A stretch of 55,824 nt of DNA, taken from Escherichia virus TH28. A program made the translations under genes and the position numbers. This document shows, one piece after another, positions 54-52,127 of the stretch (position 1 is its first letter; the number at the start of each line of letters is the position of its first letter). Location of the stretch: the sequence record MT446402.1; one strand, given 5' to 3'. The notes beneath the pieces are model-generated. The model was given only the letters and a program-made list of their open reading frames with translations. It searched no databases and was not told where the DNA came from.

Positions 54-56
54 TTA

Positions 57-2818: not shown

Positions 2819-2858
2819 TGTGATGTAATTCCATTATGTTGGCATATTGCCATTAAAT

Positions 2859-3203: not shown

Positions 3204-3220
3204 TTTAGCCTTCGGTGTGG

Positions 3221-3691: not shown

Positions 3692-3700
3692 TGTCTTACC

Positions 3701-13222: not shown

Positions 13223-13442
13223 TGTCCAGGTCGGACAGGATAGATTGTGTTACTGCGAAATCTTCCGATTCCTTTAATGCTTTCAGGGCACTTTCGTAGG
13301 TGATATCGCCCTGATAATCACTTCCAAATAATGCCGAGGCGTGCATCTCAATTGCAGACACCGCCAGTTGTGTGGACGGAATATCTCCAGCCGCTTGATG
13401 GAGTTCCATCTGTTGTTTGTCGTACAAGGCTAAAACACGCAT
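13197..13442 (-). CDS. hypothetical protein
   Basis: 81-aa ORF between DNA polymerase and 12323..13222. Confidence 0.35.
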   Translation of the reverse strand: MRVLALYDKQQMELHQAAGDIPSTQLAVSAIEMHASALFGSDYQGDITYESALKALKESEDFAVTQSILSDLDIDSHIIEI

Positions 13443-17206: not shown

Positions 17207-17211
17207 TTATA

Positions 17212-17862: not shown

Positions 17863-17918
17863 TTGCTCTCCGGTTCATATGGTGGGAGATTAATTAGCTC
17901 CGCACCATGATAATGGTA

Positions 17919-19211: not shown

Positions 19212-19371
19212 GCGATTTAATCTCGATAGATTCCTTAATAGAATCGAATTGCTTCTCTTTGGCTTCCTGACGCTCCTCGGCTTTGCCTGAGCTTTTGCCT
19301 TTGAGGAACACTGCAATAATAATACCCAATGCAGTAAGGACGCCAAGAATAATTGACTTAAGCTGTTGCAT
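19135..19371 (-). CDS. i-spanin-like protein
   Basis: 78 aa with N-terminal transmembrane segment IILGVLTALGIIIAVF then charged region; overlaps lipoprotein ORF in another frame. Confidence 0.45.
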   Translation of the reverse strand: MQQLKSIILGVLTALGIIIAVFLKGKSSGKAEERQEAKEKQFDSIKESIEIKSHVQKEVSSSSDSNVDSELLSKWVRK

Positions 19372-19379
19372 GAATCACC

Positions 19380-19622
19380 TTAGATGGCGCACGCACCACT
19401 TGAACAGTCGTTATCACCAGCACCAGGAACGATTGCTTCTTCGTCCTGCTTCTTCTTGAGTTCTTCGATTGCTTCTTCGGCAGCACCGAAGTCTAGGTTA
19501 TCAAGTGCATCAAAATCCATGAGGACTCCAGTATTGCGGTTATTGGAATGATTGCCAATGTAAGAGTCGAACTTACATAACACCCCGTCGAGTGTCGTCT
19601 TCCCATTTAGACGAATTGGCAT
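19380..19622 (-). CDS. hypothetical acidic protein (internal start of ORF 19380..19658)
   Basis: Annotated ORF start would overlap the tRNA-like element; Met at 19622 avoids overlap. Confidence 0.35.
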   Translation of the reverse strand: MPIRLNGKTTLDGVLCKFDSYIGNHSNNRNTGVLMDFDALDNLDFGAAEEAIEELKKKQDEEAIVPGAGDNDCSSGACAI

Positions 19623-19628
19623 TAAGGG

Positions 19629-19721
19629 TGGACGAGGTTGGGTTCGAACCAACGACACATCTGTCGAACAGATTGCTCTACCTGACTAAGCTCTGGAGCA
19701 GACCTTCTGAGCTACTCGTCC
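19629..19721 (-). tRNA. tRNA-like element, 93 nt, with extra sequence in the D region
   Basis: Minus strand: 7-bp acceptor stem GGACGAG/CTCGTCC, U8-A9, D-stem halves GCTC..GAGC, T-arm GTTGG-TTCGAAC-CCAAC, discriminator A; about 21 extra nt between the D-stem halves; possible anticodon UCG. Confidence 0.4.
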
Positions 19722-20592
19722 AAAATTGGGTGGGTTTTGGTAACGCAGGTTTTCCCGAACTGCGAGGCTTGTAGAATCAGTGAGCCGCCTGTTTGGTATC
19801 TTCGGCCTGCCGTGGATTGATGGTCCCGACTCACTTCATCTCAGGTACGAGGCACTACTTTGCGAGTGCAAGCAGGTGTTGAACCCAAGTACCAACAGGC
19901 AACCTAATTTATTCCACCGTTGTGGAAACCATTGGTTAGAGCAGTTTATTTCCATGCTCAGGGCAATTCACTTTAGGGCGAATTAGGTTATACAGTGCAG
20001 CTTCGAAGTCGCTGCCACAGGCTTGAGATTCCTGTGTGGAGGGAAATCCAAAGGAGCACTTCCTCAAGGAGTTACGTTTCACATTGGCATAGCTTCTCAC
20101 ACTAAACCAATTGAAGACATTCCAGTGTGCTCGTCCGTCCTCCGGAAATATCCAACTGCATAATTAAGTTTGTACTCTGTCACATCCCTACGCGCACTGA
20201 GGGACTTAAGTCTGCATTACATCGCAGAATACAAATTAATTATTGCTCCGATTTATTAATCACATCTCGAAGCCACAATGCGCCAAATTTGGTTACATGG
20301 GATTGGAAGACCACGGAGAGAACTTAAATTTAATTAAGCTGCAACTCGCATTTCAGAATCATTTGCATTTATTTTAAATGAATAAAACAGCCGCATGATA
20401 ACGAATGAAAACTACTTCAATGAACACTCTTGTCGGGGCCACGAGATTGGGCATCGGCCTACCTCCCAACTCTAATCACAAGAATGCTCATTGAAGCCCA
20501 CTCACTCTGGAATGGGTTCAAGGCAGCACCGGACAACTTCCAGTGCACGCCAGATCGATTTAGCTTAGTCTCTCAAGTTTGCCATCGGCAAC

Positions 20593-20931
20593 TTAGAATA
20601 CCGGAGCTTCTTCAACAGCAGCTTCTGCTACTGCAACAGCGGCTTCTTCTTCGACCTTAACTTCTTTCACGGTGTCAAACACAGTGCGTTCAACTTCCGG
20701 ACAACCGGCTTCAACCCACGGCAGGTAGAATGCCAGGAATGCAGCAGCGGTATTGGTCTGCATTGAGCGAGAACGGTCAATCAGCTTGTTGGTGTTTGCG
20801 AACGCTTCAACAGCAGCTTCAATTTTAGCGCCGTTTTCCAGTTTAAAATCGTGTGCGTTACACTCAGCTTCACTCAGGAACAGGGAACCATCGTTAGCTT
20901 CGTACTGAGTTACGGTTACAATCTTAGCCAT
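20593..20931 (-). CDS. hypothetical protein
   Basis: 112-aa ORF, acidic Ala/Glu-rich C-terminus; 17-bp motif 77 nt upstream. Confidence 0.45.
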   Translation of the reverse strand: MAKIVTVTQYEANDGSLFLSEAECNAHDFKLENGAKIEAAVEAFANTNKLIDRSRSMQTNTAAAFLAFYLPWVEAGCPEVERTVFDTVKEVKVEEEAAVAVAEAAVEEAPVF

Positions 20932-21007
20932 TTGTATATACCTTATATTGAATAGTTTTGCACGCCATCATGACGTGACTGTAGATAGATTAAAGAGCCT
21001 TTCTCTT

Positions 21008-21024
21008 TTCACATCCAATTAATG
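21008..21024 (-). promoter_or_regulatory. conserved 17-bp motif (minus strand CATTAATTGGATGTGAA)
   Basis: One of 7 copies of CATTAGTTGGATGTGAA-like motif in gene orientation; 77 nt upstream of 20931 start. Confidence 0.45.
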
Positions 21025-21054
21025 TGTCAGGACTGCTCTGATTTAACAAACAAC

Positions 21055-21729
21055 TCAATACATATTGAATCGTTCGATTGTTTTGATTACCAAATCCTTT
21101 GTCTCAGCGACAGTGAGTTCAGTGATGATTGATTCGTCATAACCCTCAATCTGGATTGCTACAAAACGCCCAACACCTGTTACGGTAAGTCGGTTAGTTC
21201 TGTCACGAACAACTACACCAGCTTCTTGCGCGACTGCTCGCAACAATTTCCAGCGTAAAGTTCGGTTTGGTACAGCAAAGCCCTTTGTCAAGAACAACTC
21301 TTTCATGAGTTCCCCAAGGCAAACAGCTTCAATGTTTTTTCCTCTTCCAACTAATTCTTGCAACAGGCACAGCGTCAACATTTCTAAATTGTTGAAGTGA
21401 CCAGCGCGCTCCAAATTAAAGAACTCTGGAGGAACAGTTGAACGAGATTTAACAGCTTGCTTGTATGCACGTTCTTCTTCCTGTGCAGCAAGCATCAGCA
21501 TCTCTGGCTTAATATATTTCATAGCAGAGAAGCCAGCGCGTGTGGCTTTAATTATGCGACAAGCCTCTTTCATCTTGTAGCGTTGCCACTCACCGCGCTT
21601 CGATTCTGGATTAAAATGGACCCACATAATGATAACATCTTCCTTGGCAAGATAGACGGCATCATTATCATTGAGCCATTGCTTGCACGTCGATAGTGCA
21701 ATCTCTTTGTCATCATCATGATAAGACAT
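21055..21729 (-). CDS. hypothetical protein (internal start of ORF 21055..21786)
   Basis: 243-aa ORF overlaps upstream gene; Met at 21729 removes overlap. Confidence 0.45.
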   Translation of the reverse strand: MSYHDDDKEIALSTCKQWLNDNDAVYLAKEDVIIMWVHFNPESKRGEWQRYKMKEACRIIKATRAGFSAMKYIKPEMLMLAAQEEERAYKQAVKSRSTVPPEFFNLERAGHFNNLEMLTLCLLQELVGRGKNIEAVCLGELMKELFLTKGFAVPNRTLRWKLLRAVAQEAGVVVRDRTNRLTVTGVGRFVAIQIEGYDESIITELTVAETKDLVIKTIERFNMY

Positions 21730-21730
21730 T

Positions 21731-22057
21731 TTAGTGGCCTTGTAGGATACGTTTGTTCGCAGTTTCTGCGTCGATTCCCAAATCAACTAATGTAACCAAG
21801 CACTGCGAAATCCGCTCTTGCGCAGCTTTCTCCAGAATTTGGTATTTTTCGTCGTTAACGCCTAACACATTCTTGGCATGAATGAGTGTAGCCATTAGGC
21901 CATGGCCCAAAGCAACAGCTTGCATTGCCTGGAGTTCAAAGTTGATTGTGATGCCAGCGAGTTCATGCTCTTTCTGGATAATCTCAATCAACTCCTCTTT
22001 CGATTTGTCTTGTAAGTTCAAAATGGAACTCCGTAAGTTGGTTGGTTTGTTGTCCAT
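21731..22057 (-). CDS. hypothetical protein
   Basis: 108-aa ORF. Confidence 0.45.
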   Translation of the reverse strand: MDNKPTNLRSSILNLQDKSKEELIEIIQKEHELAGITINFELQAMQAVALGHGLMATLIHAKNVLGVNDEKYQILEKAAQERISQCLVTLVDLGIDAETANKRILQGH

Positions 22058-22329
22058 TCGCGAGTTGCAATTTGCATGGACTTGTTTGGTCCGAGGTAGA
22101 AGTATTTCTTAACTTCCTCAAGTGTGTATTTAGCACTGCTTCCGAGTATGTCTTTGAAAGTGTGCTTCCAGAACCCATCTTTCTCCGAAATTCCTACGGT
22201 AAAGTCGTTGGTGCCGTTGTACCACCAACGTCCGCCAACCAGGACGAAGTGGATTGTTTCTTCCTCACCTGTGGGAGCTGTTGTTACATTTCTTAATGTC
22301 AAAACTTTAGCAGAATGCTTGCGAATCAT
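22018..22329 (-). CDS. hypothetical protein
   Basis: 103-aa ORF. Confidence 0.45.
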   Translation of the reverse strand: MIRKHSAKVLTLRNVTTAPTGEEETIHFVLVGGRWWYNGTNDFTVGISEKDGFWKHTFKDILGSSAKYTLEEVKKYFYLGPNKSMQIATREWTTNQPTYGVPF

Positions 22330-22964
22330 AGGAACTCTCCAATTTTCGATTCAGTGTTTGTGACTTCTCTTCTCATCTTTTGGCCCAGGAACAGGCCACA
22401 GGGTAGCGCAGGAAGGCCGAAAATCGGGCCACTGCCTACCGTTTGTGTCAATTCTGGATAACTGCATTGGCGAAGGGTTACTCCCGTTAGGGTGCGATAC
22501 GCTAATCACATGAGTGTCGTCGCCATACGGCTCAGGCGTGTCACAGAGGCTTTGCAACCCTTCCCAATACATTCACCCAAATCCCAGCGTTGGCGTAGCT
22601 GGTGGCTCGGTTTTGTGCGGATTATGCCACTCTAAGCCCTGTTTGTCCGACTTTCTCGGAGCACCAGCGACTTGTGGCACAAACCTATTTTCGAATGACT
22701 AACATAAGCATGAGGCATAACCCTCTAATTATTCAGCCCTAACAGCTTGCTTATTTAGTACCAATTCAACCCAATACATCGACCTATAACAAGTGATTAG
22801 CTTCTGCGAAGAAGTATTCTGGCCCTTTGGCCTATGTTAAAAGATAAGTGTATTTGATGGAAACATTCCATCGAAAATAACTTTGTAGAATGAGTTGAAC
22901 ATTCTCGCACGTTATCGGCCGTAACGGTCTACCGAGTTACAAAGTTATTATCTGATGTTGTTTC

Positions 22965-22981
22965 TTCAATTCCAACTAATG
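22965..22981 (-). promoter_or_regulatory. conserved 17-bp motif copy
   Basis: Plus strand TTCAATTCCAACTAATG; part of a roughly 20-bp direct repeat with 23105-23121. Confidence 0.4.
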
Positions 22982-23050
22982 TTTCAGAATTATTCCAATA
23001 TTCCAAACAAAAAGAATAATAAGAATAAATTAAATAAATGAAGAAAGTGC

Positions 23051-23080
23051 TTGACACCCATTTGGCTATAAGTGTATAAT
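23051..23080 (+). promoter_or_regulatory. consensus sigma70-type promoter on the non-coding strand
   Basis: TTGACA (23051-23056), 18-bp spacer, TATAAT (23075-23080), AT-rich upstream; points rightwards, antisense to 23192-23975. Confidence 0.5.
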
Positions 23081-23104
23081 GCCTTTCTTCCCTAAGAGGT
23101 CAGA

Positions 23105-23121
23105 ATCAAATCCCACTAATG
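23105..23121 (-). promoter_or_regulatory. conserved 17-bp motif copy
   Basis: Plus strand ATCAAATCCCACTAATG, directly downstream of the plus-strand sigma70-like promoter. Confidence 0.4.
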
Positions 23122-23191
23122 TTTCAGACTAAAGCCGAAGGCCAATGCGAGTACAAAACCCGCTTGGCACTTCGAAGAAACCCGCCTGGAA

Positions 23192-23395
23192 CTATAGTGT
23201 TTTCCAGTCTGAATCAAACATTACAGTTGGTCGAGTAAAGATTGTTGAAGAATCGGTGCTCAAGAAGGTATGATTCCCATACCGTTTAACTTCCTGATAA
23301 GCAAATCCCTCAATCCACTCTCCGCTGGTGGCTTTAATCTTCGTTGGCCCCAGAATACGGTAATAAGTATTTCTTGGCTGGTGATGAACAATCAT
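23192..23395 (-). CDS. DUF1653-like small protein (internal start)
   Basis: YYRILG ... YQ ... RPTVMF resembles DUF1653 family pattern by recollection. Confidence 0.35.
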   Translation of the reverse strand: MIVHHQPRNTYYRILGPTKIKATSGEWIEGFAYQEVKRYGNHTFLSTDSSTIFTRPTVMFDSDWKTL

Positions 23396-23408
23396 CTCAG
23401 CTTCGATT

Positions 23409-23975
23409 TCAGATGTTTTCAAGCTGCGCACGAAACAATACCCCATTTGAGAAGATGAAGTCTGAACCATAATCGTGAACAAACTTCTCCCAATCAATGT
23501 AGTTCAGTAAATTATCAGGAATGCCATACGAATCGCTTTCCTGTCGGAAATACTGCTCCATAGAGTCAAATTCTCCGATATACGCATCAAGCAAATTAAC
23601 TTCTTGATAGAAGATATCAATTTCATCACTGTCGTATGCAGCCATGATAATTTCTTCACTAACTTCTGTCAGCAAATTGTTATAATGGTCGTAGCGAGTG
23701 CGACTAAAGACACCTTTAATAAAGCAGAGCTTGGTTACGCTGTCATCATCTGATTCGATAATGTCATACGTGCCGGTTTCAGGGAATTCGATTCCGTATT
23801 CTTCATGCAGATACTCCTGCATATTGAAGTCATAGAGCCGCCATGCCAGACCATCAATCCAAACATCTTCAAATTCAGAGTTGTTTTCGCCTGTGTAGAA
23901 ACGAACCAATAAGGTTTCATCTCTACGCCAGGACTTAAGTTGTTCCACTGCTTTAGTAATGTTATCGTTTTGCAT
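23409..23975 (-). CDS. ardA: ArdA-like antirestriction protein
   Basis: Highly acidic; C-terminal block LLNYIDWEKFVHDYGSDFIFSNGVLF matches the conserved ArdA C-terminus (NYID..SG.F....G.F) as I recall it. Confidence 0.6.
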   Translation of the reverse strand: MQNDNITKAVEQLKSWRRDETLLVRFYTGENNSEFEDVWIDGLAWRLYDFNMQEYLHEEYGIEFPETGTYDIIESDDDSVTKLCFIKGVFSRTRYDHYNNLLTEVSEEIIMAAYDSDEIDIFYQEVNLLDAYIGEFDSMEQYFRQESDSYGIPDNLLNYIDWEKFVHDYGSDFIFSNGVLFRAQLENI

Positions 23976-24252
23976 TAAGTTTCTCCCACATACCTTGAAG
24001 TTCCATGTTAAGGATTTTGAGCTGTTCAATTCGCCCTTTCCCGCCCTTTACTAGTATGTCCAGGATGGCGGTCTTCTCTTCATATGTTACTAGATAACAG
24101 CATCTGCCAACCTCAATTTCGTGTCTCAGACTACGGGAATCTTGCACATGATTTGACAAATGTTGGTGGAGTTCTGCCTCTGCACGAGACGTACGCTCCT
24201 GCATACGCTCTAATTCTTTCGGTATTTCCTGATATTCCATCGGATACTCCAT
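23962..24252 (-). CDS. hypothetical protein
   Basis: 96-aa ORF, charged and helical. Confidence 0.4.
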   Translation of the reverse strand: MEYPMEYQEIPKELERMQERTSRAEAELHQHLSNHVQDSRSLRHEIEVGRCCYLVTYEEKTAILDILVKGGKGRIEQLKILNMELQGMWEKLNAKR

Positions 24253-24260
24253 TGATGAAG

Positions 24261-24656
24261 TTATGCTGGAAGTTCGAAGTGCGGTGCGTCGAGGAATTTA
24301 GCCCATTTCACTGGCTTAGTGAATGAACGTTCCCATGTTCCACCCCAACGAATAACAATTCCAAGCTCCTCTGCGGCTTTGAACATGTGTTCAGCTACAA
24401 TTTGGAATCGTTCAAGGTCATTCCAGTCAATTGGGTATGGTGCAATGTCCAAAGCGTTGCCTGACATGTGTCGGCTAATAGAAACTTTGGTTGCACCCTG
24501 CTTTAAAAGCTCTTGTTGACGTTCATAAGAGCGTAAACCTTCCAAAACAGTTACATCAAAAGGCATGGTTTCACATGCCCGTTTGAAAACTGCAACTAAT
24601 GAAGGATTTACTCCCTTAAGTCGGTCTAAAGAACGTTGGCCGAGCTTAACATTCAT
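24261..24656 (-). CDS. peptidase M15 family (L-alanyl-D-glutamate peptidase-like) peptidoglycan hydrolase
   Basis: Zn-ligand motifs SRHMSGNALD and C-terminal HFE; 131 aa. Confidence 0.65.
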   Translation of the reverse strand: MNVKLGQRSLDRLKGVNPSLVAVFKRACETMPFDVTVLEGLRSYERQQELLKQGATKVSISRHMSGNALDIAPYPIDWNDLERFQIVAEHMFKAAEELGIVIRWGGTWERSFTKPVKWAKFLDAPHFELPA

Positions 24657-24931
24657 TATTTACCCTTTAATGCATCGTTTAAAGTGTTGTTCAACAGTGT
24701 GTTGAGTTCATCAAGCTCGTCAAATGCTGCCTGAGCTTTGTTAACTTCGTCAACAAGTAGTGCTCGAAGGACTGCATGCTCAACAAGCACCCATCCGTTA
24801 ATACAGTCGATGAAAACTTTAACTTTATCAACTGGAGCATTTAAATCAAAGGCCGACAAGTCGGATTTGGCATTGTCCAACTTTCCTTTTGCCTTACTTA
24901 GTTCAACAGGAACTTGGTCTATAGAAATCAT
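24656..24931 (-). CDS. hypothetical protein
   Basis: 91-aa ORF. Confidence 0.4.
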   Translation of the reverse strand: MISIDQVPVELSKAKGKLDNAKSDLSAFDLNAPVDKVKVFIDCINGWVLVEHAVLRALLVDEVNKAQAAFDELDELNTLLNNTLNDALKGK

Positions 24932-25161
24932 TGAAAATTATTTCCACTAGGGTGAATGGTTAATTTGAAGGATACTAATTCCCTATTGATTGAGGTTGTT
25001 CCTAGAACTGTTGCCTCAAACAACATGGATTTGGAAGTTTCCTTACCTACACGTTCCAAGTATTTTACAACTCGGTCGTGAATTACTGCCCATTGGCGAT
25101 ATTCGCAATCGGATTCCAGCAGGTATTGAACTCCATCAATGGTAAATTCGGATGACGTCAT
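24928..25161 (-). CDS. hypothetical protein
   Basis: 77-aa ORF. Confidence 0.4.
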   Translation of the reverse strand: MTSSEFTIDGVQYLLESDCEYRQWAVIHDRVVKYLERVGKETSKSMLFEATVLGTTSINRELVSFKLTIHPSGNNFQ

Positions 25162-25508
25162 TTAACTTCCTTACAATAGGTTGATAACAATGGAAATTTG
25201 GCATGAAAGAAGTCAATGTCACGATAAATCTGTAGCACCAAACGTTCCTCAGCGTCAACACCAACTAAGGCCAGCTTACTGCTCTGTGTATTGTAGAACA
25301 CTGTTGACATTGGATTAGGATTTCCATTATCTGGAATCTCAATCCATGTACCTTCGTGCAAAGAAATTGTTGCAATGAGTGGCTGGCTCATTGTAATTGT
25401 TTCAACGGACATTTTGTACCCGCCACACTGGAAGCTGCGAACAGATGCTTCTGATTTGAATGCGAATACTCCAAACAAAATTGTGAGTGCAATGTATAAA
25501 GTTTTCAT
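25158..25508 (-). CDS. secreted / periplasmic protein
   Basis: N-terminal signal-peptide-like MKTLYIALTILFGVFAFKSEA. Confidence 0.45.
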   Translation of the reverse strand: MKTLYIALTILFGVFAFKSEASVRSFQCGGYKMSVETITMSQPLIATISLHEGTWIEIPDNGNPNPMSTVFYNTQSSKLALVGVDAEERLVLQIYRDIDFFHAKFPLLSTYCKEVK

Positions 25509-25563
25509 AAATGCTCCAGTGATAATTAATCGAGGCCACTCGAAGTGGAATGACCTCTGTTAA

Positions 25564-26466
25564 TTACAGCTTCTTAATAAGCTCTGCGGATTTGCTTGCG
25601 GCAACTTTCATTTCATCGCGTGCGGCTTTAGTGATTGATGCCTTGTCCACGCGAATATTGCAGTTGCCAATTGCAATCTTGCCATCTGCTGTTGGTGCAA
25701 GCTGCTGTAAGTCAAGCATTTGCTCCAGCTTTTGCAGAAGAATACGCTGCGCTTCGATTGCATTTTGGATATTTAAAGTTTCCATAACTGCTCTTACCTT
25801 TCTTGAAAATGTTCCGGTTAATGCGAGGCGTACTTGTAGACCTTTAACGTTTCCATAGTCTACATTTACTTTATTGGCTGGTGAATGTGGATGTTTGTAC
25901 ACGTTTGTTACAGTTGCCCAATTATTATTTACCCAAATAACATCACCAACTTCCACATCTTTTCCGAGAACATCTTCTTCATCGGATACTTTCTGCTTCT
26001 TAGATTCTTCTACAGGAAGGAATACTGGATTTATCTGATTAGGGAACTCAATTGTTGGTGAGTTTGACATTGGTCCTGGGTTAACAATATAAACAACCCT
26101 ACTCTTAACAAAGTCGAAGTACCCTTTTTCGTGGTGCAGACGAACATCCGAGCCATAATCTTCTACGCGAGTAATGTAGAAGAAGTTCACACCGTAGCTC
26201 AGTGTTTCACCTGCTACAACCATACAAGCTTTTACTGGAGTAACCTTTGGCAACTCTTTATATGTACCAATGTTACATAAAATTTCAACAGCCTGCATAT
26301 TCTCCAGATTGAAGTATCCCTGTTTTGTGTGGTTTATTTGCACACTGTCTCTGAGTTGAATAACGTCAGCTACAGGATATTCTTCTCCCTCATGAACTAT
26401 TACATCACCTTTCTTAACCAGATTGGCTGGAATCTTTACAACCTTAATTCCCATGATATTCCTCAC
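25564..26466 (-). CDS. hypothetical protein (300 aa)
   Basis: Long ORF on coding strand; no recognised motif. Confidence 0.5.
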   Translation of the reverse strand: MRNIMGIKVVKIPANLVKKGDVIVHEGEEYPVADVIQLRDSVQINHTKQGYFNLENMQAVEILCNIGTYKELPKVTPVKACMVVAGETLSYGVNFFYITRVEDYGSDVRLHHEKGYFDFVKSRVVYIVNPGPMSNSPTIEFPNQINPVFLPVEESKKQKVSDEEDVLGKDVEVGDVIWVNNNWATVTNVYKHPHSPANKVNVDYGNVKGLQVRLALTGTFSRKVRAVMETLNIQNAIEAQRILLQKLEQMLDLQQLAPTADGKIAIGNCNIRVDKASITKAARDEMKVAASKSAELIKKL

Positions 26467-26576
26467 GCATTGCTGAACAGTGCTTACACACCCAAAAGGT
26501 TACATAATCGTTTTCATGCGAAATTTCCCAATTATGTAGCCCTATAAAACATAAAATTTTCATAGGGCATCTCCAA

Positions 26577-26954
26577 TTAGAATGGAATATCGTCGTCGAA
26601 GTCTTTCGGCTCGTTCGGATTGTAGTTACTGTTCTGCGTCTGTTGCTGAATAGGTGCTTGCTGTTGTGCAGCAGGTTGCTGGCGTTGCTGTTGCTGTTGA
26701 GCAGCAGCTTGAGGTTGAGCTTTGGCTTTAGCTTTCTCTTCACGCTTACGCATCATTTCATCAACTTGTTCTTGGGTCATGATGGTGAGTGCCAGCGAGG
26801 TAAATTCATTACCATTGGCTTGCTTGTTCCAACCAGACACCCAATACCAGATTCCGTCAACGTTAATACGTCCACGAACGTCAGGATGTTTTGGGTCTTT
26901 CTTAAAGCCATTGGAACCGATGATGCCAGTGTTTACGTCTGAATATTGTGCCAT
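26577..26954 (-). CDS. short SSB-like protein with Gln-rich linker and SSB-type C-terminal tail
   Basis: C-terminus KDFDDDIPF matches the enterobacterial SSB tip; Q/A-rich linker; N-terminal region only about 65 aa; 17-bp motif 73 nt upstream. Confidence 0.5.
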   Translation of the reverse strand: MAQYSDVNTGIIGSNGFKKDPKHPDVRGRINVDGIWYWVSGWNKQANGNEFTSLALTIMTQEQVDEMMRKREEKAKAKAQPQAAAQQQQQRQQPAAQQQAPIQQQTQNSNYNPNEPKDFDDDIPF

Positions 26955-27026
26955 GATTAAGATTCTCTTAAGTTAATTTACGGTTTAAGTTTCAGCGACA
27001 TTGCTAACCACGGAATAGCTTTGTCT

Positions 27027-27043
27027 CTCACATCCAACTAATG
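27027..27043 (-). promoter_or_regulatory. conserved 17-bp motif copy
   Basis: Plus strand CTCACATCCAACTAATG; 73 nt upstream of 26954 start. Confidence 0.45.
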
Positions 27044-27202
27044 TTGAATTAATCAGGAACACTCAATGAATGCTCCTTGTTAATTTAACGCGCCAGTTTA
27101 TATTCCTGCTTGTAATAGCAGCAGGTTGGCAAAGCCTATAACAATCGTAATTATAACAACGCTAATAGTAAGTGTCAGTATTAGGTATTTAATATTCAAT
27201 CC

Positions 27203-27490
27203 TCACATCACCTTCGATACAGGAATTGGGTCAATGTTTGATTCAGGTTTATACCAACTAACTTCACCAGAATCTTTCACAAGTTCCCAATTATCGGAGA
27301 ATGTACGATAGAGTAGAACATTGTTATCATCAATAACGACAAAACCCAAAGGAGATTGAATATACGCACCTAATGTACCACTGTTTCGAGGAACTCCGTC
27401 ACCACGACCTGCGACGATTTTGTACTTCTTGCCTTTGGTAAAGCTGGAATTAGTTTCACCAACATATTTAACGATTGAATTCTTGTTCAT
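27203..27490 (-). CDS. small hypothetical protein
   Basis: 95-aa ORF; shares short KxVG/W-rich pattern with neighbours. Confidence 0.4.
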   Translation of the reverse strand: MNKNSIVKYVGETNSSFTKGKKYKIVAGRGDGVPRNSGTLGAYIQSPLGFVVIDDNNVLLYRTFSDNWELVKDSGEVSWYKPESNIDPIPVSKVM

Positions 27491-27701
27491 TGCTCTAGTT
27501 TCTCCAAAGCTGCCAAAACTGAATCACCAGAACCGCTAATTACAAGCGACTCTCCTGGAAGATTGTAGGATATATAAGAGAACGTCCATTTTACAACAGT
27601 TCTCTGATATTAGGAGCTGTATTTATCAGACAGCTCTACATCTTGTCTTGCATCATTTAATAAGAACTCCTGTCCATTGACATTGAGTCTTTTAAACATT
27701 T

Positions 27702-28004
27702 CTATATAGTTCTTACCCACGGTTTCATCTTCTCCCATTTAGACAAACCACCTTCAAGACTAAAGATTCGGTTACAGCCAGATTCATCTTTAATGACAAA
27801 TTGAGTTCCTGTCAGTTGAATTGGCTCAAGTGCGCCAAACAACACTTTAGGTTTTGACAAGCTGGTGGCAAGAACCACATAAACTTTGCTTGGGCAAATA
27901 TCAAAAGCAAAGTCGCGAGTGTAAACTAAGTCACCAACTTTCAAATATGCTGGCAACAGGCGACCTGTGGCTGGGTCACGTTGTAAACGAGTACGTTGTT
28001 TCAT
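27702..28004 (-). CDS. small hypothetical protein
   Basis: 100-aa ORF. Confidence 0.4.
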   Translation of the reverse strand: MKQRTRLQRDPATGRLLPAYLKVGDLVYTRDFAFDICPSKVYVVLATSLSKPKVLFGALEPIQLTGTQFVIKDESGCNRIFSLEGGLSKWEKMKPWVRTI

Positions 28005-28067
28005 AAATGCTCCAAGTTAATTAATAATATTCAGCAACCACTCTCATTATAAGAATGGTTGAGGAAA

Positions 28068-28298
28068 TTATTTGACTTCTTTCCAAGTCCAAACACTGCC
28101 GTTTAATGGGACACTTTCACCAATGCTCCAGTAGGGTCTGCCATTGGCAGCCACTCGGTCCCCAACATTCGAAACAATTATTCGAGGGTCGATTCCGTGT
28201 TTTCGCTGTTTGTGGATAAGTTCTCCTTCAATCACATCTCCAACTTTTGGAGTATGTTCGGATGAAGAAGAGGATTTTATACATACAAACTTTGTCAT
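28068..28298 (-). CDS. small hypothetical protein, paralogue of 28295..28522
   Basis: Shared pattern VGDVIEGE ... NGxxWTW. Confidence 0.45.
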   Translation of the reverse strand: MTKFVCIKSSSSSEHTPKVGDVIEGELIHKQRKHGIDPRIIVSNVGDRVAANGRPYWSIGESVPLNGSVWTWKEVK

Positions 28299-28522
28299 TG
28301 TAATACACCTTGTTCACAAATGTCTGCAAACTCTGCACGATGGTCACGCTGCCATGTCCAGAATGCACCATTCATAGGAACGACAGCACCTTTACGAAAT
28401 GCTGGAGAGAACTCCTCAGCAGATTTGGTAACTTTAAATTCCAAAGGTGAAATAGCTTCACCCTCAATGATTAGGCCAACTGGAACGTAGTCTTTGTTGG
28501 AAGCAACACATTTAAATTTCAT
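28295..28522 (-). CDS. small hypothetical protein, paralogue of 28068..28298
   Basis: Shared pattern VGLIIEGE ... NGAFWTW. Confidence 0.45.
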   Translation of the reverse strand: MKFKCVASNKDYVPVGLIIEGEAISPLEFKVTKSAEEFSPAFRKGAVVPMNGAFWTWQRDHRAEFADICEQGVLQ

Positions 28523-28826
28523 GGTATAAAACTCCTAATTCAGATTCTAATTTAAATTCACGGAAGAAATCCATTGTTACAAATCGGACTTTACCTTCGT
28601 CATCAACTACGTTACAGGAAATGTCGGAGTGGACCATCCTGCCTAGCTTCAAAGCAACTTCTGAAAGATTCGCTTCGCCAGTCCCTGAGATTACACGGTA
28701 GATGCGATATGGTGTAAAGCCGCTTAAAGAGTTATTACGGCTTGGGACAATCATCATGCCTGTTTTAGTAGCCATAATAACTCCAATATTAAAAGTACAT
28801 GAATGCGCCAATAGTAAGTAGCACAA
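28512..28826 (-). CDS. hypothetical protein
   Basis: 104-aa ORF, likely internal start at MATKTG. Confidence 0.35.
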   Translation of the reverse strand: MCYLLLAHSCTFNIGVIMATKTGMMIVPSRNNSLSGFTPYRIYRVISGTGEANLSEVALKLGRMVHSDISCNVVDDEGKVRFVTMDFFREFKLESELGVLYHEI

Positions 28827-29041
28827 GTGGGAACATCAGAATACAGAATACTAATTTCTTTACGATATCCATTATTTCACCAGGAAGTAGAGAACAATAG
28901 CAACACCAACACATGTAATGATTGTTGGCATATAATTATCAATTTTACGATATTTACGTTCGACTGGCTTCTTGCCTTCGATGGCATTCATCAGTTCTTG
29001 ATGATTAATCTGCTGCATTAATGTGTTGAATTGCTGGTCGT

Positions 29042-29230
29042 TCATTTTGCCTCCAGAATTTGGCTTAATGAGCTGAACACGATTTCCTCATGTTCGTCAG
29101 GTGTACATGCATTGATGTAACCAAAGTCATAACCAACAAACTTCTCTGCCCACTGCTGTAAACGAAGTAAAGAATTGAAGTACAAACTTTGCTCTACACC
29201 ATTTAACTTAAAGTAGACGATGAAGTCCAT
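29042..29230 (-). CDS. hypothetical protein
   Basis: 62-aa ORF. Confidence 0.4.
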   Translation of the reverse strand: MDFIVYFKLNGVEQSLYFNSLLRLQQWAEKFVGYDFGYINACTPDEHEEIVFSSLSQILEAK

Positions 29231-29472
29231 GATTAACCTCGGGCTTTAATGAAGTGAGGGTGAGCAGCCATTGCCACAATTTTGTTGTGCTTGTCATTTT
29301 TGAATTGCAAGCCAAACATATTCAGGGTGTGCAGCAGGTTTCCAAACCAGACGCCCCCCTTTCTCCATAAATCATCGTGTCAGCCAACATCACTGCCTTA
29401 GTTACAGTATTAACCAAAGCATGTGAAACAACACCGTCACGATTGATGTACTGATACAGTGCATAATTCATT

Positions 29473-29724
29473 TCAGAATCCTTTAGTGTATCCAACAGTT
29501 TTACGTAGAATGATTTCATCATTTGAACCACCTGGCTCTAATTCGATTTCGATTTCAACAACATCACTGTCTTTAAGTTTACATGCACGGCTTGAGTCAT
29601 AGAATCTTACAGTGTTGTACAGACCACACTCACCCTCCACCTTAATACATTTGATAGAATTGTAAGTGAAGATTTGACCTTCTGACAGGTCAGCAAATTT
29701 TGCACGTTTGTTGATGGTGTCCAT
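29473..29724 (-). CDS. hypothetical protein
   Basis: 83-aa ORF preceded by GGAG and a G8 tract. Confidence 0.4.
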   Translation of the reverse strand: MDTINKRAKFADLSEGQIFTYNSIKCIKVEGECGLYNTVRFYDSSRACKLKDSDVVEIEIELEPGGSNDEIILRKTVGYTKGF

Positions 29725-29761
29725 TATAGCTCCGAAGTTGGAGGGTTACTCCCCCCCCATA

Positions 29762-29980
29762 TTAAACTGAAATTGGCTCTTGAACTAAATCAGAAGCTGA
29801 GATTTCTTTAAACTCTTCTTCTGTAAAAGTTCTCTCATTGTCATTTAATAAAACACCAATGTTAGAATCACCAACGAACACAGCATTTACATTAATGTCA
29901 TCTTCCAAAACCTTTTGCAGATGTTCCCCACCACGCGTGAAGAAGATTGCACCATCTTCCAAATCTTTAAAACGAGTCAT
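29762..29980 (-). CDS. hypothetical protein
   Basis: 72-aa acidic ORF, first gene after the repeat region. Confidence 0.4.
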   Translation of the reverse strand: MTRFKDLEDGAIFFTRGGEHLQKVLEDDINVNAVFVGDSNIGVLLNDNERTFTEEEFKEISASDLVQEPISV

Positions 29981-30270
29981 TTTATTCTCCTAAGTTAAAA
30001 GAAAACTCCCGTCATAACGATTGTGGAGGTCTTGTATTACCTTAATCCACCTTAAAGAATCAGGGAGTTATATAGTATTCCTGTGTGTGCCGCCATCATG
30101 GACTTCCTAGTCTGGTGGGCGCGTTGCAATCCAGCAATAAACCACACGTTTTTCACAGGCTATATATGTGACACACAAAGTGTCTAAAAACTACAATGAT
30201 TAGCTTGGAGACATAATCTCTCTAAAATCTGTCACACAATTTCAGCAGAATTCACAGAGATTTGGTCTTA

Positions 30271-30287
30271 TTCACATACAACTAATG
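30271..30287 (-). promoter_or_regulatory. conserved 17-bp motif copy
   Basis: Plus strand TTCACATACAACTAATG. Confidence 0.4.
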
Positions 30288-30339
30288 ATAAATGAACATG
30301 CTTAATTGCAACTAACTCATCTGCCAAATAGACGAATTT

Positions 30340-31164
30340 TGTCACAATTAAACATGCGTCATTAATTACAGGTTTACTCCCACCTTGAATGTATTTGGCA
30401 CATTAAGATTGGAGCAAGCAGGTACGGAAAACCGACCATGTACAGCATAATAAAACTAATTAAATAAAGGGTTTTATCCCAATATTGTCACAATATTTAC
30501 ATGCGATGATAAAGCCTTCGCTTGGCTGGAAGCCAGTATTCATGCGGGTTGCAAGAATATTGGGTCAATACTGATACAGCTATTACATGTGAAATTGGCA
30601 CAAATACTGTTACAAAATTAACATGCCGGATTGGTAGACAATTGTATCTTCGAGGTGATTAGTCCTCTAACAATTCTGCCACATTCTAACATGCCAATTT
30701 GTAGCAATATTTACATGCCATACTGTGACGCAATTGTCACAATATTTGTTGCTCAAAATCGGGGCGGGCTACGGGATTAGTTTCGCGGCTTTGCTCCGAC
30801 TCTTCTCTTCTTTCGAATTAAGATAGAAAGAAAGAAGCATGTCCAAAAGTTCCAGTCTTGCCAAAGTTATCTCCCGGCTTGTGGGTGGGCCTTTATAATA
30901 GGAGATGGAGCAATATTGTCGCAATTGAACATGCTTTAGTTGAAGAACAGTTTCGAATGATAATCCTACTTCACACATGGTTGCTGGAACTTTGTCTGGC
31001 CAAAGACAGGGAGTTCAATGATTGCCACATCATTACAACGCTGTGTGTTTAGTTGACATGCTGAAATGTTTCTAGAATGATTTCAACATGACATGCGGAA
31101 TACTTCTCCGTATTCTGTTACTTCACATCCAACTAATGTCGAATATTGAAACAATATTACATGC
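30340..31164. repeat. array of at least 8 same-orientation copies of a roughly 20-bp motif (plus strand ATTGTCACAATATTTACATGC)
   Basis: Copies at 30340-30357, 30484-30504, 30608-30626, 30677-30694, 30700-30718, 30733-30752, 30915-30934, 31150-31164 plus partial copies; irregular spacing; immediately downstream of RNAP gene. Confidence 0.7.
31122..31138 (-). promoter_or_regulatory. conserved 17-bp motif copy
   Basis: Plus strand TTCACATCCAACTAATG. Confidence 0.4.
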
Positions 31165-31200
31165 AGCAATATTGCTTGAATATTGGGAATTAAAGGATTT

Positions 31201-31247
31201 AATTAATAAAGAATAAAGAAAGGGCCATCACCTTTCGATGACAGCCC
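31201..31247 (-). terminator. putative intrinsic terminator after RNAP gene
   Basis: Minus-strand hairpin AGGGCTGTCATCGAAAGGTGATGGCCCT followed by U-rich TTCTTTATTCTTTATT; RNAP stop at 31256. Confidence 0.5.
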
Positions 31248-31255
31248 TGTTTCTC

Positions 31256-33370
31256 TTATTGACAGAAGTAGTAAGCGTGTTCGCTCATCAGAAGCTCTTC
31301 GGTTACGATGTTCTCATGATACATCTGAATGCCACCAAGTTGCTTAGACAGATTCTCGAATTGATTGTTGGTTACGAAGATTTCAACATATGCTGCACGA
31401 ATAACTTCCATCATTTTAGGAGCATCAGCTAAGCAGCAACGGAAACAATCATGGATTGAAGTAAAGCCACGAAGACCAGCTTCTTTAGCTTTGACTGCAA
31501 CAGTACGAGCAACCAATGCGTCAATACCTTGAATGTAGTTAACAACGAAGGTACGTTTGAATTCCTCTTTAGTTGGATTGGACTCACGAATGGTCCAAGG
31601 CTTATTCTCCTGAATCTGACCAAAGATGACACGAGTTTGAGAGTCAACACGAATGCTGAATGCATCACAAACATCACGAGATGGGAAGCAAGGTTTCATT
31701 ACAACTTGACCATCAGTGTGCTTATATGTGATGTACTCTTTGTTGAGTTCAACACAACGAGCAAATGCAGCATCAGCAGCTTTCTCGATGAACATGTTAA
31801 TCTTAGCACCCAATGCGTTATGGATTGCTTCAACACAAAGTTCAGCAAATGCTTCGGCTTTCTCCATAGGAATCTGGAGAGCTTCTGTCATGTATGCGGT
31901 GAAATCAGAAGAACCAGTCAATGCAGCTTTACCACCACCATATTGGATAGCCATGTATGGAGTTTTGATAAACTTACGACCAGCTTTCGGATTCAAGAAT
32001 TCATCCATAATTTCAGCGGATGGTTTCATTGAAGAACGGTCAAGCAACTTCAACAGTTCACGAAGAGATAACTGGTATGGGTCAGATGCTTTAGTCTCAG
32101 AATCAACCAGACCTGTAGCACGAGCCATTTCCATGTTACCAGCAATGAATGCCAAGTATTGGGTACCAGAACATTTAGCATCTAAGCCAAAGCCTACACG
32201 AGAATCACACTCACCTGTAGTCTCAAACTTGAACCAATCCAGAGCCAGACGAACATAAGTGAATGGCTTAGAAGGACGCTCACCTTTAGGCATGTTCAGC
32301 ATACGAGCCAAAGAACCAGCAGGATTCTGTGCAACATAAGTTAAACGTTTTGCAGAAGTCCAGTCTCCACCAGCAATATCTTCCAGCTCAAGCATGAACA
32401 TGTTGTATGCCAGAGTTGTTGAGCCATCATCATTAAACTTGCTCACAGTGTTCTCAACATTGTGGGAATACAGGCAACGAGCAAAGTCGGATGATTGTGG
32501 GTTAGGACCAGCACATGCTACATGATACAAACGACCACGGTTATCAGCAAAGTAGTCAGAGAACAGAGTGTCCTGCCCAACCATTGCTACAGCATTGTTC
32601 CAAACATGGAGTTCAGTCTGGATTGCTTCTGGCATCTGTAAGCCACCAAAGGTACGTTGTTCTAACATGGAAGAGATAACCTTAACCATTGTTGCATCAA
32701 CGTGATATTCAGTATCTTGCAGGAATTCGATTGCAGCTTTCAGAGTCTTGGATGGCTTAACTTTGCCACCTTTAACGAAAGGCTTGCGACGAGATTCAGT
32801 TGTTACACGCTCAGTGAATGGAACTGAGGTATCTTTGGTTGTAACCAGCTCAACCCATGCATCAGTCATCTGGAACGATTTGTCCTCGTTCATGGTGATG
32901 AAACCGAAGTGCTTAGCTAAACCAATGAGGTTGATAGCTGGGTCAACATAGTGCATTGCTTTCAGGTCGTTGTTATAACGGTTGGCATCAGCAATAGAAG
33001 CAGAAGCCAGCTCGACCATTGCAATGGCTGGGACAACATCATCACGAGTGAATGACGTCATCATCTTGAAGATTGCAAGAGCAGCAATAGCACAGGTCTG
33101 AGGCTGCATGTAATTCTGTTTCTCTTTGGCACGGTATACCAGAGCCGTGATAGCAGGGACAACGGATTTGATAGTTTGAGTTGAGATAGTTGTCATTTTG
33201 CGAGTCTCCAAGTTAGTTTCGGTTTTAGTTTCGGATTGTGTAGCAGCAGTGATTTCGTCAACCATTTGGTTGCAACGGTCCATCGTATCAAGCACGTCTT
33301 TCCAACCGTGGCCTTCTTCTTTTAAGCGAGCGCCATCAGCAGCCAGTGCGCGATATTCTTCGTTAGTCAT
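31256..33370 (-). CDS. single-subunit DNA-dependent RNA polymerase (T7-like)
   Basis: Motifs DNRGRLY, DAKCSGTQY (motif A), RKFIKTPYMAIQYGGG (motif B), IHDCF (motif C) match T7 RNAP; 704 aa. Confidence 0.85.
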   Translation of the reverse strand: MTNEEYRALAADGARLKEEGHGWKDVLDTMDRCNQMVDEITAATQSETKTETNLETRKMTTISTQTIKSVVPAITALVYRAKEKQNYMQPQTCAIAALAIFKMMTSFTRDDVVPAIAMVELASASIADANRYNNDLKAMHYVDPAINLIGLAKHFGFITMNEDKSFQMTDAWVELVTTKDTSVPFTERVTTESRRKPFVKGGKVKPSKTLKAAIEFLQDTEYHVDATMVKVISSMLEQRTFGGLQMPEAIQTELHVWNNAVAMVGQDTLFSDYFADNRGRLYHVACAGPNPQSSDFARCLYSHNVENTVSKFNDDGSTTLAYNMFMLELEDIAGGDWTSAKRLTYVAQNPAGSLARMLNMPKGERPSKPFTYVRLALDWFKFETTGECDSRVGFGLDAKCSGTQYLAFIAGNMEMARATGLVDSETKASDPYQLSLRELLKLLDRSSMKPSAEIMDEFLNPKAGRKFIKTPYMAIQYGGGKAALTGSSDFTAYMTEALQIPMEKAEAFAELCVEAIHNALGAKINMFIEKAADAAFARCVELNKEYITYKHTDGQVVMKPCFPSRDVCDAFSIRVDSQTRVIFGQIQENKPWTIRESNPTKEEFKRTFVVNYIQGIDALVARTVAVKAKEAGLRGFTSIHDCFRCCLADAPKMMEVIRAAYVEIFVTNNQFENLSKQLGGIQMYHENIVTEELLMSEHAYYFCQ

Positions 33371-33432
33371 GATAAGTCTCCAATTGATTATGATTTAACT
33401 GAAACGGATTAGACTTGCGTAGCCTATTCATA

Positions 33433-33449
33433 ATCACAACCAACTAATG
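33433..33449 (-). promoter_or_regulatory. conserved 17-bp motif copy
   Basis: Plus strand ATCACAACCAACTAATG; 63 nt upstream of RNAP start. Confidence 0.45.
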
Positions 33450-33499
33450 GTAAGGCTAGCTCGTTACAACAGCGTGCTCTGATTGCCTTTGACCTTGAC

Positions 33500-33960
33500 C
33501 CACTACCTAACTTGGTGTTGATTGAAAGCCGATAGGCTATAGGAAAAAGTTGGGGTAGGGACCGTATTTAAGTCCGATAGGACGTTGGGCTTCCCCTCCT
33601 CGGAGATAAAATTTTAAAAATAATAATGACACAACTTCCCCCCCCCCCCGCCACCTCAAAAATAAAATAATATCGCCACAATTCTAGTCTCATTAATATT
33701 GAAACAATTCGAGTCTCATTAATTCCGTAGCAATATTTAAATTAAAAAAAAAAAAATTATATAAAATTTTTATAACATAGTCGGGCTTCTGTTCGAACAA
33801 ATTTCGGCTAGATACAGCTGACCGATTGTGAACGAGTCTATGTCCAGATACAGTTGACCGATCATTTACCATTTGGTTTGAACTTTACGCATTCCTAATA
33901 TTACTTTAAATATTGTAGCAATATTGGGAATAAGTAATATTGAAAACTTACTTATTTTAT
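33500..33960. other. repeat- and homopolymer-rich intergenic region (candidate genome end, origin or packaging region)
   Basis: C12 at 33638-33649, A13 at 33744-33756, direct repeats CAGATACAG(C/T)TGACCGAT at 33811 and 33844, AGTCTCATTAAT at 33687 and 33711, CAATATT-type motifs. Confidence 0.45.
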
Positions 33961-34043
33961 TCTAGCTCAAAGAGAAACGACGCTAACGCATCGAATCTCT
34001 TCTCACATATTAACTGACAAACGTCAGCCTTCACCATACCCAA

Positions 34044-45826: not shown

Positions 45827-45892
45827 CTATTGAAATTAATACATATTCAAATAATATTAAAGAGGAATGCCGAGACGAATCCCGGCACTTTC

Positions 45893-52125: not shown

Positions 52126-52127
52126 TA

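Follow-up and report, generated by a model that had tools for sequence, protein, structure and literature searches.

A repeated 17-base motif as the likely promoter of a T7-fold phage RNA polymerase in Escherichia virus TH28

The window analysed here, the whole 55,824-nucleotide stretch of Escherichia virus TH28 (MT446402.1), comes from a phiEcoM-GJ1-like myophage of the Chaseviridae, near Carltongylesvirus. The unannotated Escherichia virus TH23 is 99.9-100% identical to it across most of its length. Gene orientation in the window is minus throughout, and all features located below lie on that strand. A single-subunit RNA polymerase gene occupies 31256..33196 (PF00940 at 70 bits), its ATG at 33196 with a GGAG ribosome-binding site giving a protein of 646 aa. 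Read from an in-frame ATG further upstream, at 33370, the protein would have 704 aa; with most homologues at 630-650 aa, this longer start is probably not the conserved one. Searching solved structures with the polymerase sequence alone reached bare significance (E 0.0025), and it was the comparison of folds that settled the family. The AlphaFold model (pLDDT 90) matches T7 RNA polymerase structures at E 8.5e-20 with a TM of 0.60 and 14% identity, and the T7 catalytic motifs DxRGR, DxxCSGxQ and HDxF align in the phage protein. The hairpin SIRVDSxTRVIFGQ, part of a predicted specificity hairpin at residues 506-537 or so, sits where the T7 specificity loop does and is nearly invariant across the Cleopatravirinae genera compared, and about 200 N-terminal residues of the T7 enzyme are absent. 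On the modelled structure, the phage polymerase is a T7-family enzyme with the T7 fold. A terminator-like hairpin (31221..31248), made of a 12-bp stem and then a T-run, follows 8 nt past the polymerase stop codon. The gene is succeeded by a 1.27-kb non-coding stretch that is repeat-rich and contains two copies of the motif described below together with the predicted right edge of a terminal repeat, about 2.8 kb in length.

A de novo repeat search of the window returned, as one repeat family (D7), the same seven copies of a 17-base motif that the original prediction had listed. Their coordinates and strand hold; they are not copies of one sequence, as had been claimed, since one is exact and the others carry 1-3 mismatches. 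Allowing up to three mismatches, nine matches were observed in the window against 0.20 expected, and 0 of 100 shuffled windows contained nine. We also scored the window with a matrix derived from 20 motif sites in four other genera only, none of them from the window. The seven sites ranked at the top with 21.2-34.6 bits, against a best score in 30 shuffles that averaged 11.3 and reached a maximum of 17.6 bits; a scan of the plus strand with the same matrix found no motif copy, the top match there scoring 9.8 bits. Minus-strand ORFs of at least 50 aa leave 9.2% of the window uncovered, and all seven sites fall within that 9.2%, in agreement with the prediction that the copies are intergenic and follow the gene orientation. 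The repeated 17-base motif is genuine and far above chance.

The core of the motif reads CATTAGTTGrAwGTGAw, and the conserved block around it extends to about 21 bp, T-[T/G]-n-r-r-CATTAGTTGrAwGTGAw. In the site alignment, information content is limited to positions -4 to 17, which form a single contiguous, asymmetric block on the gene strand; within the 17-mer, T4, A5, G9, T14 and G15 are invariant. Position 18, the base after the 17-mer, is variable (T in 12 of 27 sites), and the 3' end occurs in two versions, GTGAAG and GTGATT. Read from its sequence, the 17-mer has at most 3 bp of self-complementarity and lacks the 5-7 bp stem of an N4-type hairpin promoter.

The copies are spread across 12-20 kb and lie 23-290 nt ahead of gene clusters. 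The only exact consensus copy (31122..31138; 34.6 bits) is located immediately past the polymerase gene and the terminator that follows it, about 85 nt beyond the 31221-31248 hairpin. The sequence downstream of this copy, GTAACAGAATACGGAGAAGTATTC, is also conserved in 4HA13 and PM1, and a conserved hairpin comes after the copy. The second copy in the 1.27-kb non-coding stretch (30271..30287; one mismatch) is followed 290 nt downstream by the first early small-gene cluster. Further along, one copy precedes the SSB gene (27027..27043; one mismatch), two lie 140 nt apart (23105..23121 with three mismatches and 22965..22981 with two), and another precedes a 112-aa gene, phrog_17419 (21008..21024; one mismatch). 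The weakest of the seven, CATTAGTTGGTTGTGAT at 33433..33449 (two mismatches, 21.2 bits), lies ahead of the polymerase gene; alignment to Mangalitsa places it within the direct terminal repeat, about 125 nt from the predicted left edge. The distances of 63-77 nt to a start codon given earlier for three sites hold up: the gaps measure 62, 72 and 76 nt to the starts at 33370, 26954 (SSB) and 20931 (the 112-aa gene), respectively. For the polymerase this applies to the 704-aa start, whereas the probable conserved start at 33196 is 236 nt from the motif.

The earlier site list was incomplete, missing a good copy and a degenerate one. The good copy, CATTATTTGGAAGTGAT at 13317..13333 (22.9 bits), lies between the DNA polymerase gene and a 299-aa gene, within a doubtful 81-aa ORF. 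The degenerate one, TATTATTTGAATATGTA at 45840..45856, scores 14.8 bits, inside the range of shuffled scores; it is preceded by a hairpin, and both come after a 1225-aa tail gene. In view of these two sites and of a look-alike in coding sequence, the description of the motif as absent from the late region was only nearly right. The look-alike, AATTAGTTGGAAGAGGA at 21340..21356, lies inside a 224-aa gene, where it codes for QELVGRG, and breaks the invariant T at position 14; Myduc and PM1 carry similar sequences at the matching position of the gene.

This arrangement bears on two readings in which the motif is not a transcription start. It might be a DNA-level site for replication, packaging or repressor binding, such as an iteron or operator, which would suit the two copies in the repeat-rich stretch, where the terminal repeat is predicted to have its right edge, and the third copy close to the left edge of that repeat. 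Iterons and operators are, however, usually clustered or symmetric, whereas the motif occurs as dispersed, single, asymmetric copies on the gene strand only, ahead of gene clusters and with hardly any self-complementarity; we consider this reading very improbable. Slightly less probable again is a function in RNA, as a processing site or 5'-UTR element of long read-through transcripts. The motif is on the transcribed strand and so would be part of any read-through RNA, and the hairpin behind the 31122 copy is conserved, but the distance to the start codon varies over the whole 23-290 nt range, the 17-mer is without structure of its own, and a contiguous, base-specific conserved block is typical of duplex DNA recognition.

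The type phage phiEcoM-GJ1 was reportedly described by Jamalludeen et al. in 2008, in Appl Environ Microbiol 74:516. Its GenBank record EF460875 labels AAACATTAGTTGGATGTGAA, a 20-mer, as 'putative phage promoter 1-9'. Promoters 1 to 5 correspond to the window sites at 31122, 30271, 27027, 23105 and 22965, promoter 6 to the look-alike at 21340, and promoters 7, 8 and 9 to the sites at 21008, 13317 and 45840; P1-P5 and P7 are identical or near-identical to their window counterparts. The sites also keep their places among conserved genes: downstream of the polymerase gene and of the DNA polymerase gene, and upstream of SSB and of the 112-aa gene. The motif sites are thus already known, a rediscovery of the GJ1 putative promoters as documented by GenBank features and secondary papers. 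The two phages differ in that the equivalent of the 33433 copy is unannotated in GJ1, although a variant is present at record positions 572-588, and in that the counterpart of promoter 9 is degraded in the window. Promoter function appears doubtful for the 21340 look-alike and for GJ1 promoter 6, since the site is embedded in conserved coding sequence and departs from the motif at a base that is invariant elsewhere. The ICTV 2022 profile describes Chaseviridae promoters as 'not yet identified' (PMC12842549), and a review states that the promoters used by Chaseviridae polymerases are alike in sequence and arrangement (PMC8472413). A literature search for a transcriptome, start-site or other experimental promoter study in the family found none, and a search with the motif string returned unrelated primer sequences only. 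What is added here is the conservation of the core across genera, its replacement in a sister subfamily, the lack of a sigma-70 -10 partner, the copy before the polymerase gene, and the sites at 13317 and 45840.

Of the six Cleopatravirinae genera sampled, at least five keep the core in corresponding places, while the sequence on either side has diverged. It was found in Mangalitsa, 4HA13 (Sabourvirus), Y2 (Loessnervirus), Myduc (Myducvirus) and PM1 (Suwonvirus), each time with unrelated flanks; in part of the relatives' genomes it was located by DNA search and alignment instead of a matrix scan. In most of these genomes it flanks the polymerase gene on both sides and precedes both SSB and the counterpart of the 112-aa gene. 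The copy ahead of the polymerase gene is present in Mangalitsa, GJ1, 4HA13, Myduc and PM1 and was not found in Y2, and the copy ahead of the SSB gene is present in Mangalitsa, 4HA13, Y2, Myduc and PM1. Five other genomes have a copy before the counterpart of the 112-aa gene, a correspondence judged from gene order and size. The polymerases of these genera are 66-79% identical. The motif is missing from the Nefertitivirinae, where polymerase identity falls to about 35%. Aeromonas phage pAh6-C and Shewanella phage Spp001 of that subfamily instead repeat GCTCTTCGAGCCACAAG, like the motif on the gene strand, both directly behind the polymerase gene and in intergenic gaps close by. Its sequence is unrelated to the window motif, and it differs further in forming a perfect 5-bp hairpin (GGCTC-TTC-GAGCC) and in occurring as tandem triplets about 30 nt apart. 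GCTCTTCGAGCCACAAG is a candidate for the counterpart promoter of the sister subfamily. Across the genomes compared, the motif tracks the polymerase lineage.

A sigma-70 or MotA-type promoter was considered as a candidate and rejected: no -10 element lies at 16-18 nt, and a generic promoter scan of the region gave 30 sites against 33 in shuffles. The motif had been said not to resemble a sigma-70 -35/-10 pair, and over 27 sites there is indeed neither a -10 at that spacing nor a conserved -35. The same data weigh on the other polymerase that the original prediction had left open, a host multisubunit enzyme redirected or modified by a phage-encoded factor that binds the motif, as modelled by the T4 MotA box or a phage sigma-like factor. 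Most early small genes are without known function and could supply such a factor, TTGGAT in the motif matches the -35 hexamer at 3 of 6 positions, and two sites have a 5/6 -10 hexamer at the right spacing. However, the best -10 match at 16-18 nt averages 2.67/6 over the 27 sites, against a null of 2.91 +/- 0.17, and MotA-type promoters still require a sigma-70 -10. In addition, the motif changes with the polymerase lineage, though the hosts differ too (Enterobacterales to Aeromonas and Shewanella). With no sigma-70-spaced -10 downstream and no conserved -35 upstream, a modified host polymerase is disfavoured, and we regard it as improbable.

Every computational test fits the phage polymerase as the reader of the motif, and the annotators of GJ1 interpreted these sites likewise. 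We therefore consider it likely, from sequence comparison, that the motif is the promoter for the phage's own T7-fold single-subunit RNA polymerase of 646 aa. The order of polymerase gene, terminator and best motif copy is the one expected of a site where transcription would switch from host to phage polymerase. The host polymerase would first read the polymerase gene, using AT-rich promoters of sigma-70-like type that lie further upstream, one of which is annotated in GJ1, and its transcript would end at the 31221-31248 hairpin. The newly made phage polymerase would then initiate 85 nt on, at 31122, and also at those copies that lead into early and middle gene clusters, namely the early small genes, the SSB cluster, the 112-aa gene and the genes that follow the DNA polymerase, while the weaker copy before the polymerase gene may provide positive feedback. 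Since that copy precedes the polymerase gene itself, the promoter class is not strictly 'early and middle', as it had been called. Initiation would take place at the 3' edge of the block, either at G15, which is invariant and would yield transcripts beginning GAAG or GATT, or at the base after position 17. That base is T in 12 of the 27 sites; T7-type enzymes would not usually have such a +1, which counts against a clear start point.

Late transcription is not accounted for by the motif alone, because the matrix scan of the window's structural region of about 30 kb gave no convincing copy. In Myduc, scanning the middle and late region for that phage's own consensus gave no positionally matching copy, and a repeat search of the whole window for a second late-gene promoter family found no other multi-copy non-coding family except the duplicated ends. 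A broader joint reading, which we put forward only tentatively and hold to be rather unlikely as a whole, is that the polymerase gene, served by a promoter of its own within the long terminal repeat, forms a self-amplifying 'autogene' loop conserved in at least five genera. Given the lack of a convincing promoter copy in the structural region, the late programme might then run on very long read-through transcripts or use a second recognition mode. Under the same reading, GTGAAG and GTGATT might mark temporal classes, and the repeat-rich stretch after the polymerase gene might be a transcription-primed replication origin like that of T7.

For a family whose ICTV profile gives promoters as not identified, the cross-genus consensus and its invariant positions provide a template for experiments; a motif-carrying template sequence is TTCGACATTAGTTGGATGTGAAGTAACA. 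If the proposed pairing is true, a polymerase about 27% shorter than T7 RNA polymerase, together with a short and distinctive promoter, could be developed into an orthogonal expression system of compact size. In genome annotation, the promoter features could be passed on to relatives, among them the unannotated TH-series genomes. Biologically, such a promoter is an expected feature in a phage that encodes a T7-like polymerase.

The promoters of T7, T3, SP6 and K11 are 23-bp blocks, from -17 to +6, that are read by a single-subunit polymerase. The system proposed here differs from them in several respects. The phage polymerase is only about 14% identical to that of T7 and about 240 residues shorter, mostly at the N-terminus, and the window motif has neither a TATA-like element at -4 to -1 nor a GGG start. 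A motif copy precedes the polymerase gene itself, whereas in T7 that gene is transcribed by the host enzyme only. Unlike in the T7 group, the structural region of the window has no convincing copies, and the phage, unlike T7, is a myovirus whose terminal repeat measures about 2.8 kb. With the 17-mer set at -17 to -1, ATTAG at -16 to -12 would be in common with the K11 consensus. Ungapped alignment by eye counts 7-8 of 17 positions in common with the K11 and SP6 consensuses, 8 of 17 in the case of SP6; we take this resemblance as no more than a lead. As in the T7 group, the motif is one contiguous, asymmetric block on the gene strand (here about 21 bp), the proposed cognate polymerase of T7 fold is encoded nearby, and a motif copy lies just after the polymerase gene.

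All seven copies of the 17-bp motif were confirmed on the minus strand (21008-21024, 22965-22981, 23105-23121, 27027-27043, 30271-30287, 31122-31138 and 33433-33449), although they do not share one sequence as the original prediction had it: one is exact and the rest carry 1-3 mismatches. The motif is enriched in the window far above chance, with 9 matches at ≤3 mismatches against 0.20 expected, and an unsupervised repeat search, to which the motif was not supplied, recovers the seven copies as a single family, D7. Using a scoring matrix built from 20 sites in four other genera, chosen against circularity, the seven sites score 21.2-34.6 bits, compared with a best of 17.6 bits (mean 11.3) in 30 shuffled controls and a top match of 9.8 bits on the opposite strand. 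The copies are intergenic as claimed, falling within the 9.2% of the window free of minus-strand ORFs of at least 50 aa; that strand carries essentially all long ORFs. Three copies also proved to lie at about the proposed 63-77 nt ahead of starts, with gaps of 62, 72 and 76 nt to 33370, 26954 and 20931.

The GenBank record of Escherichia phage phiEcoM-GJ1 (GJ1; EF460875) holds nine "putative phage promoter" features, whose sequences give the consensus AAACATTAGTTGGATGTGAA, and, ahead of the polymerase gene, a single sigma-70 promoter. The window copies at 31122 (the best copy), 30271, 27027, 23105, 22965 and 21008 are equivalent to GJ1 promoters 1, 2, 3, 4, 5 and 7, respectively. The list of seven was not complete, as a whole-window scan adds an eighth good copy at 13317-13333 (22.9 bits; GJ1 promoter 8) flanked by the DNA polymerase gene and a 299-aa gene, a look-alike at 21340-21356 inside a 224-aa gene (promoter 6), and a decayed copy at 45840-45856 after the 1225-aa tail gene (14.8 bits, inside the shuffle range; promoter 9). 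The decayed copy qualifies the predicted absence of the motif from the late structural region; the matrix scan found no convincing copy in these ~30 kb, and Myduc has none at the matching position. The motif thus leaves late transcription unexplained, and long read-through into the late genes is the simplest guess.

Over 20500-33600 the window shares 100% identity with Escherichia virus TH23 and TH33, both unannotated in GenBank, and 83-93% with phiEcoM-GJ1, ST32, MLP1 and the Yersinia PYps phages, which belong to the genus Carltongylesvirus (Chaseviridae, Cleopatravirinae). The window spans ~1.07 genome lengths. It matches TH23 at 99.9-100% over 3214-31473 and 33473-55824, including the right end (100%), whereas its first 2.8 kb carry the capsid region a second time, in a version 89.9% identical to TH23; the nearest relative of the first 6 kb is Yersinia phage PYps23T (95.9%). 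Both 1-3818 and 52073-55824 carry the same capsid and tail-completion genes, but at just 90-96% identity, and they do not form a true terminal repeat. Apparently the window is either a mosaic or a wrapped genome in which two co-occurring strains were assembled together.

The motif core is present in Mangalitsa, 4HA13 (Sabourvirus), Y2 (Loessnervirus), Myduc (Myducvirus) and PM1 (Suwonvirus), whose first 17 kb hold 5-9 copies each where ~0.1 are expected, on the gene strand without exception. According to the annotation tables, shared positions are directly ahead of the polymerase gene, directly after it and ~1 kb beyond, as well as ahead of the SSB gene and of the gene that takes the place of the 112-aa gene; the copy ahead of the polymerase gene was not found in Y2, unlike the other relatives examined. 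When 32 sites are aligned together with their 25-nt flanks, conservation is restricted to the motif block. Among 27 non-coding sites, T4, A5, G9, T14 and G15 are invariant, information reaches 4 nt 5' of the 17-mer (T, then T or G) and ends sharply past position 17, where an A-rich stretch follows. The 3' end takes two forms, GTGAAG(a/t)AAC and GTGATT.

We consider it likely that the motif is a promoter for the phage polymerase. A sigma-70 or MotA-type promoter fails: the motif's TTGGAT has no -10 hexamer 16-18 nt past it (mean best match 2.67/6 against a null of 2.91), and no upstream -35 is conserved in the 27 non-coding sites, in agreement with the earlier remark that the motif is unlike a sigma-70 pair. 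Neither does an operator or iteron fit copies that are single, asymmetric, dispersed and strand-specific, nor an RNA element a motif without structure at a variable distance (23-290 nt) from start codons. Judging from the alignment, a polymerase promoter would have two candidate start points, the invariant G15 and position 18 (T in 12 of the 27 sites).

The polymerase scores 70 bits against Pfam PF00940. By sequence it matches T7 polymerase only marginally (E 0.0025), with the DxRGR, DxxCSGxQ and HDxF motifs aligned, and its AlphaFold model (pLDDT 90) can be matched along its whole length to structures of T7 and mitochondrial polymerases (E 8.5e-20, TM 0.60, 14% identity). In the alignment, residue 210 corresponds to T7 residue 413, which makes the N-terminal promoter-binding region ~200 residues shorter. 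Since 114 homologues are mostly 630-650 aa and the annotated polymerases of GJ1, ST32, 4HA13, Y2, Myduc and PM1 are 631-648 aa, the start is probably the ATG at 33196 (646 aa, GGAG ribosome-binding site) rather than 33370 (704 aa). The in-frame 58-codon extension (33197-33370, minus strand) is common to Mangalitsa and some relatives and absent in GJ1, ST32 and the other genera, with a separate 55-aa ORF in its place in 4HA13; it represents a fused leader ORF or else an alternative start.

The segment SIRVDSxTRVIFGQ is nearly invariant among the Cleopatravirinae polymerases, which are 66-79% identical to that of the window; more distant homologues have other sequences there. In the model this segment is a beta-hairpin region (residues 506-537) directly preceding the part that aligns to T7 residues 775-845, and so at the place of the T7 specificity loop. 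The motif is absent from the sister subfamily Nefertitivirinae (phages pAh6-C and Spp001), whose polymerase is ~35% identical; a different repeat, GCTCTTCGAGCCACAAG, lies directly after the polymerase gene of both phages, and pAh6-C has it in intergenic gaps close by as well. The exchange of the motif for GCTCTTCGAGCCACAAG along with the polymerase lineage is expected if the phage polymerase reads the motif, with host change as a confounder. GCTCTTCGAGCCACAAG is a candidate promoter of the Nefertitivirinae polymerase. It occurs at 16813-22005 of the pAh6-C locus (L007) and 9115-9190 of the Spp001 locus (L008), holds a 5-bp hairpin, and is present in Spp001 as three tandem copies ~30 nt apart.

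A terminator-like hairpin (31221-31248, 12-bp stem) lies 8 nt past the polymerase stop codon, and the best motif copy 85 nt beyond it. Directly downstream of that copy, 31085-31121 (minus strand) reads GTAACAGAATACGGAGAAGTATTC, forming a GAATAC/GTATTC hairpin and nearly identical in 4HA13 and PM1 though the surroundings diverge; the first transcript made by the phage polymerase may thus begin with a conserved stem-loop. By alignment to the 3.2-kb direct terminal repeat predicted for Mangalitsa by PhageTerm, the predicted repeat in the window runs from ~33572 to ~30800, and the polymerase gene and copies 33433 and 31122 would thus be doubled in packaged DNA. Terminal repeats of this kind have been demonstrated experimentally in PYps23T (PMC8762354). 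Upstream of the predicted edge, AT-rich 33650-33990 (minus strand) contains tandem copies of AATTAATGAGACTnGAATTGT, a 13-T run, a 12-G run and AATATTGCTAC repeats; the GJ1 counterpart of the AATTAATGAGACTnGAATTGT region is annotated as a sigma-70 promoter. If the edge is right, host promoters at 33650-33990 precede only the right-hand polymerase gene copy.

A 1.27-kb non-coding stretch (29981-31255, minus strand) separates the polymerase gene from the first early genes and takes in two motif copies as well as the right edge predicted for the repeat. GCATGT occurs in it 10 times on the gene strand, where 0.3 are expected, and often precedes AAATATTG..CAATATT; there are 12 copies in Mangalitsa and 12 in GJ1. 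The array could consist of extended -10 host promoters; alternatively, the stretch could be a replication origin, a reading drawn from T7, where the primary origin likewise lies directly after gene 1 with two phage promoters.

Elsewhere, a perfect sigma-70 consensus (TTGACA-N18-TATAAT) at 23051-23080 on the plus strand, kept in GJ1 and Mangalitsa, opposes all genes and faces motif copy 23105. With the plus-strand terminator-like hairpins at 23267-23283 and 23315-23331, it would yield an antisense RNA of ~200-250 nt. ARAGORN calls a tRNA of undetermined anticodon at 19552-19621 (minus strand), and GJ1 has an annotated tRNA-Arg "that may contain an intron" at roughly the corresponding position.

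A 2021 review describes the promoters used by Chaseviridae polymerases as alike in sequence and arrangement (PMC8472413), and the ICTV 2022 profile states that they are "not yet identified" (PMC12842549), which we read as never validated. No start-site or transcriptome study of Chaseviridae was found in the literature searched. In summary, the motif is well supported as a real regulatory element and is a rediscovery of the already known, annotated putative promoters of the phiEcoM-GJ1 group; new over that annotation are the consensus across genera, the negative outcome for sigma-70, the finding that the sister subfamily has another repeat instead, and the copy conserved ahead of the polymerase gene.
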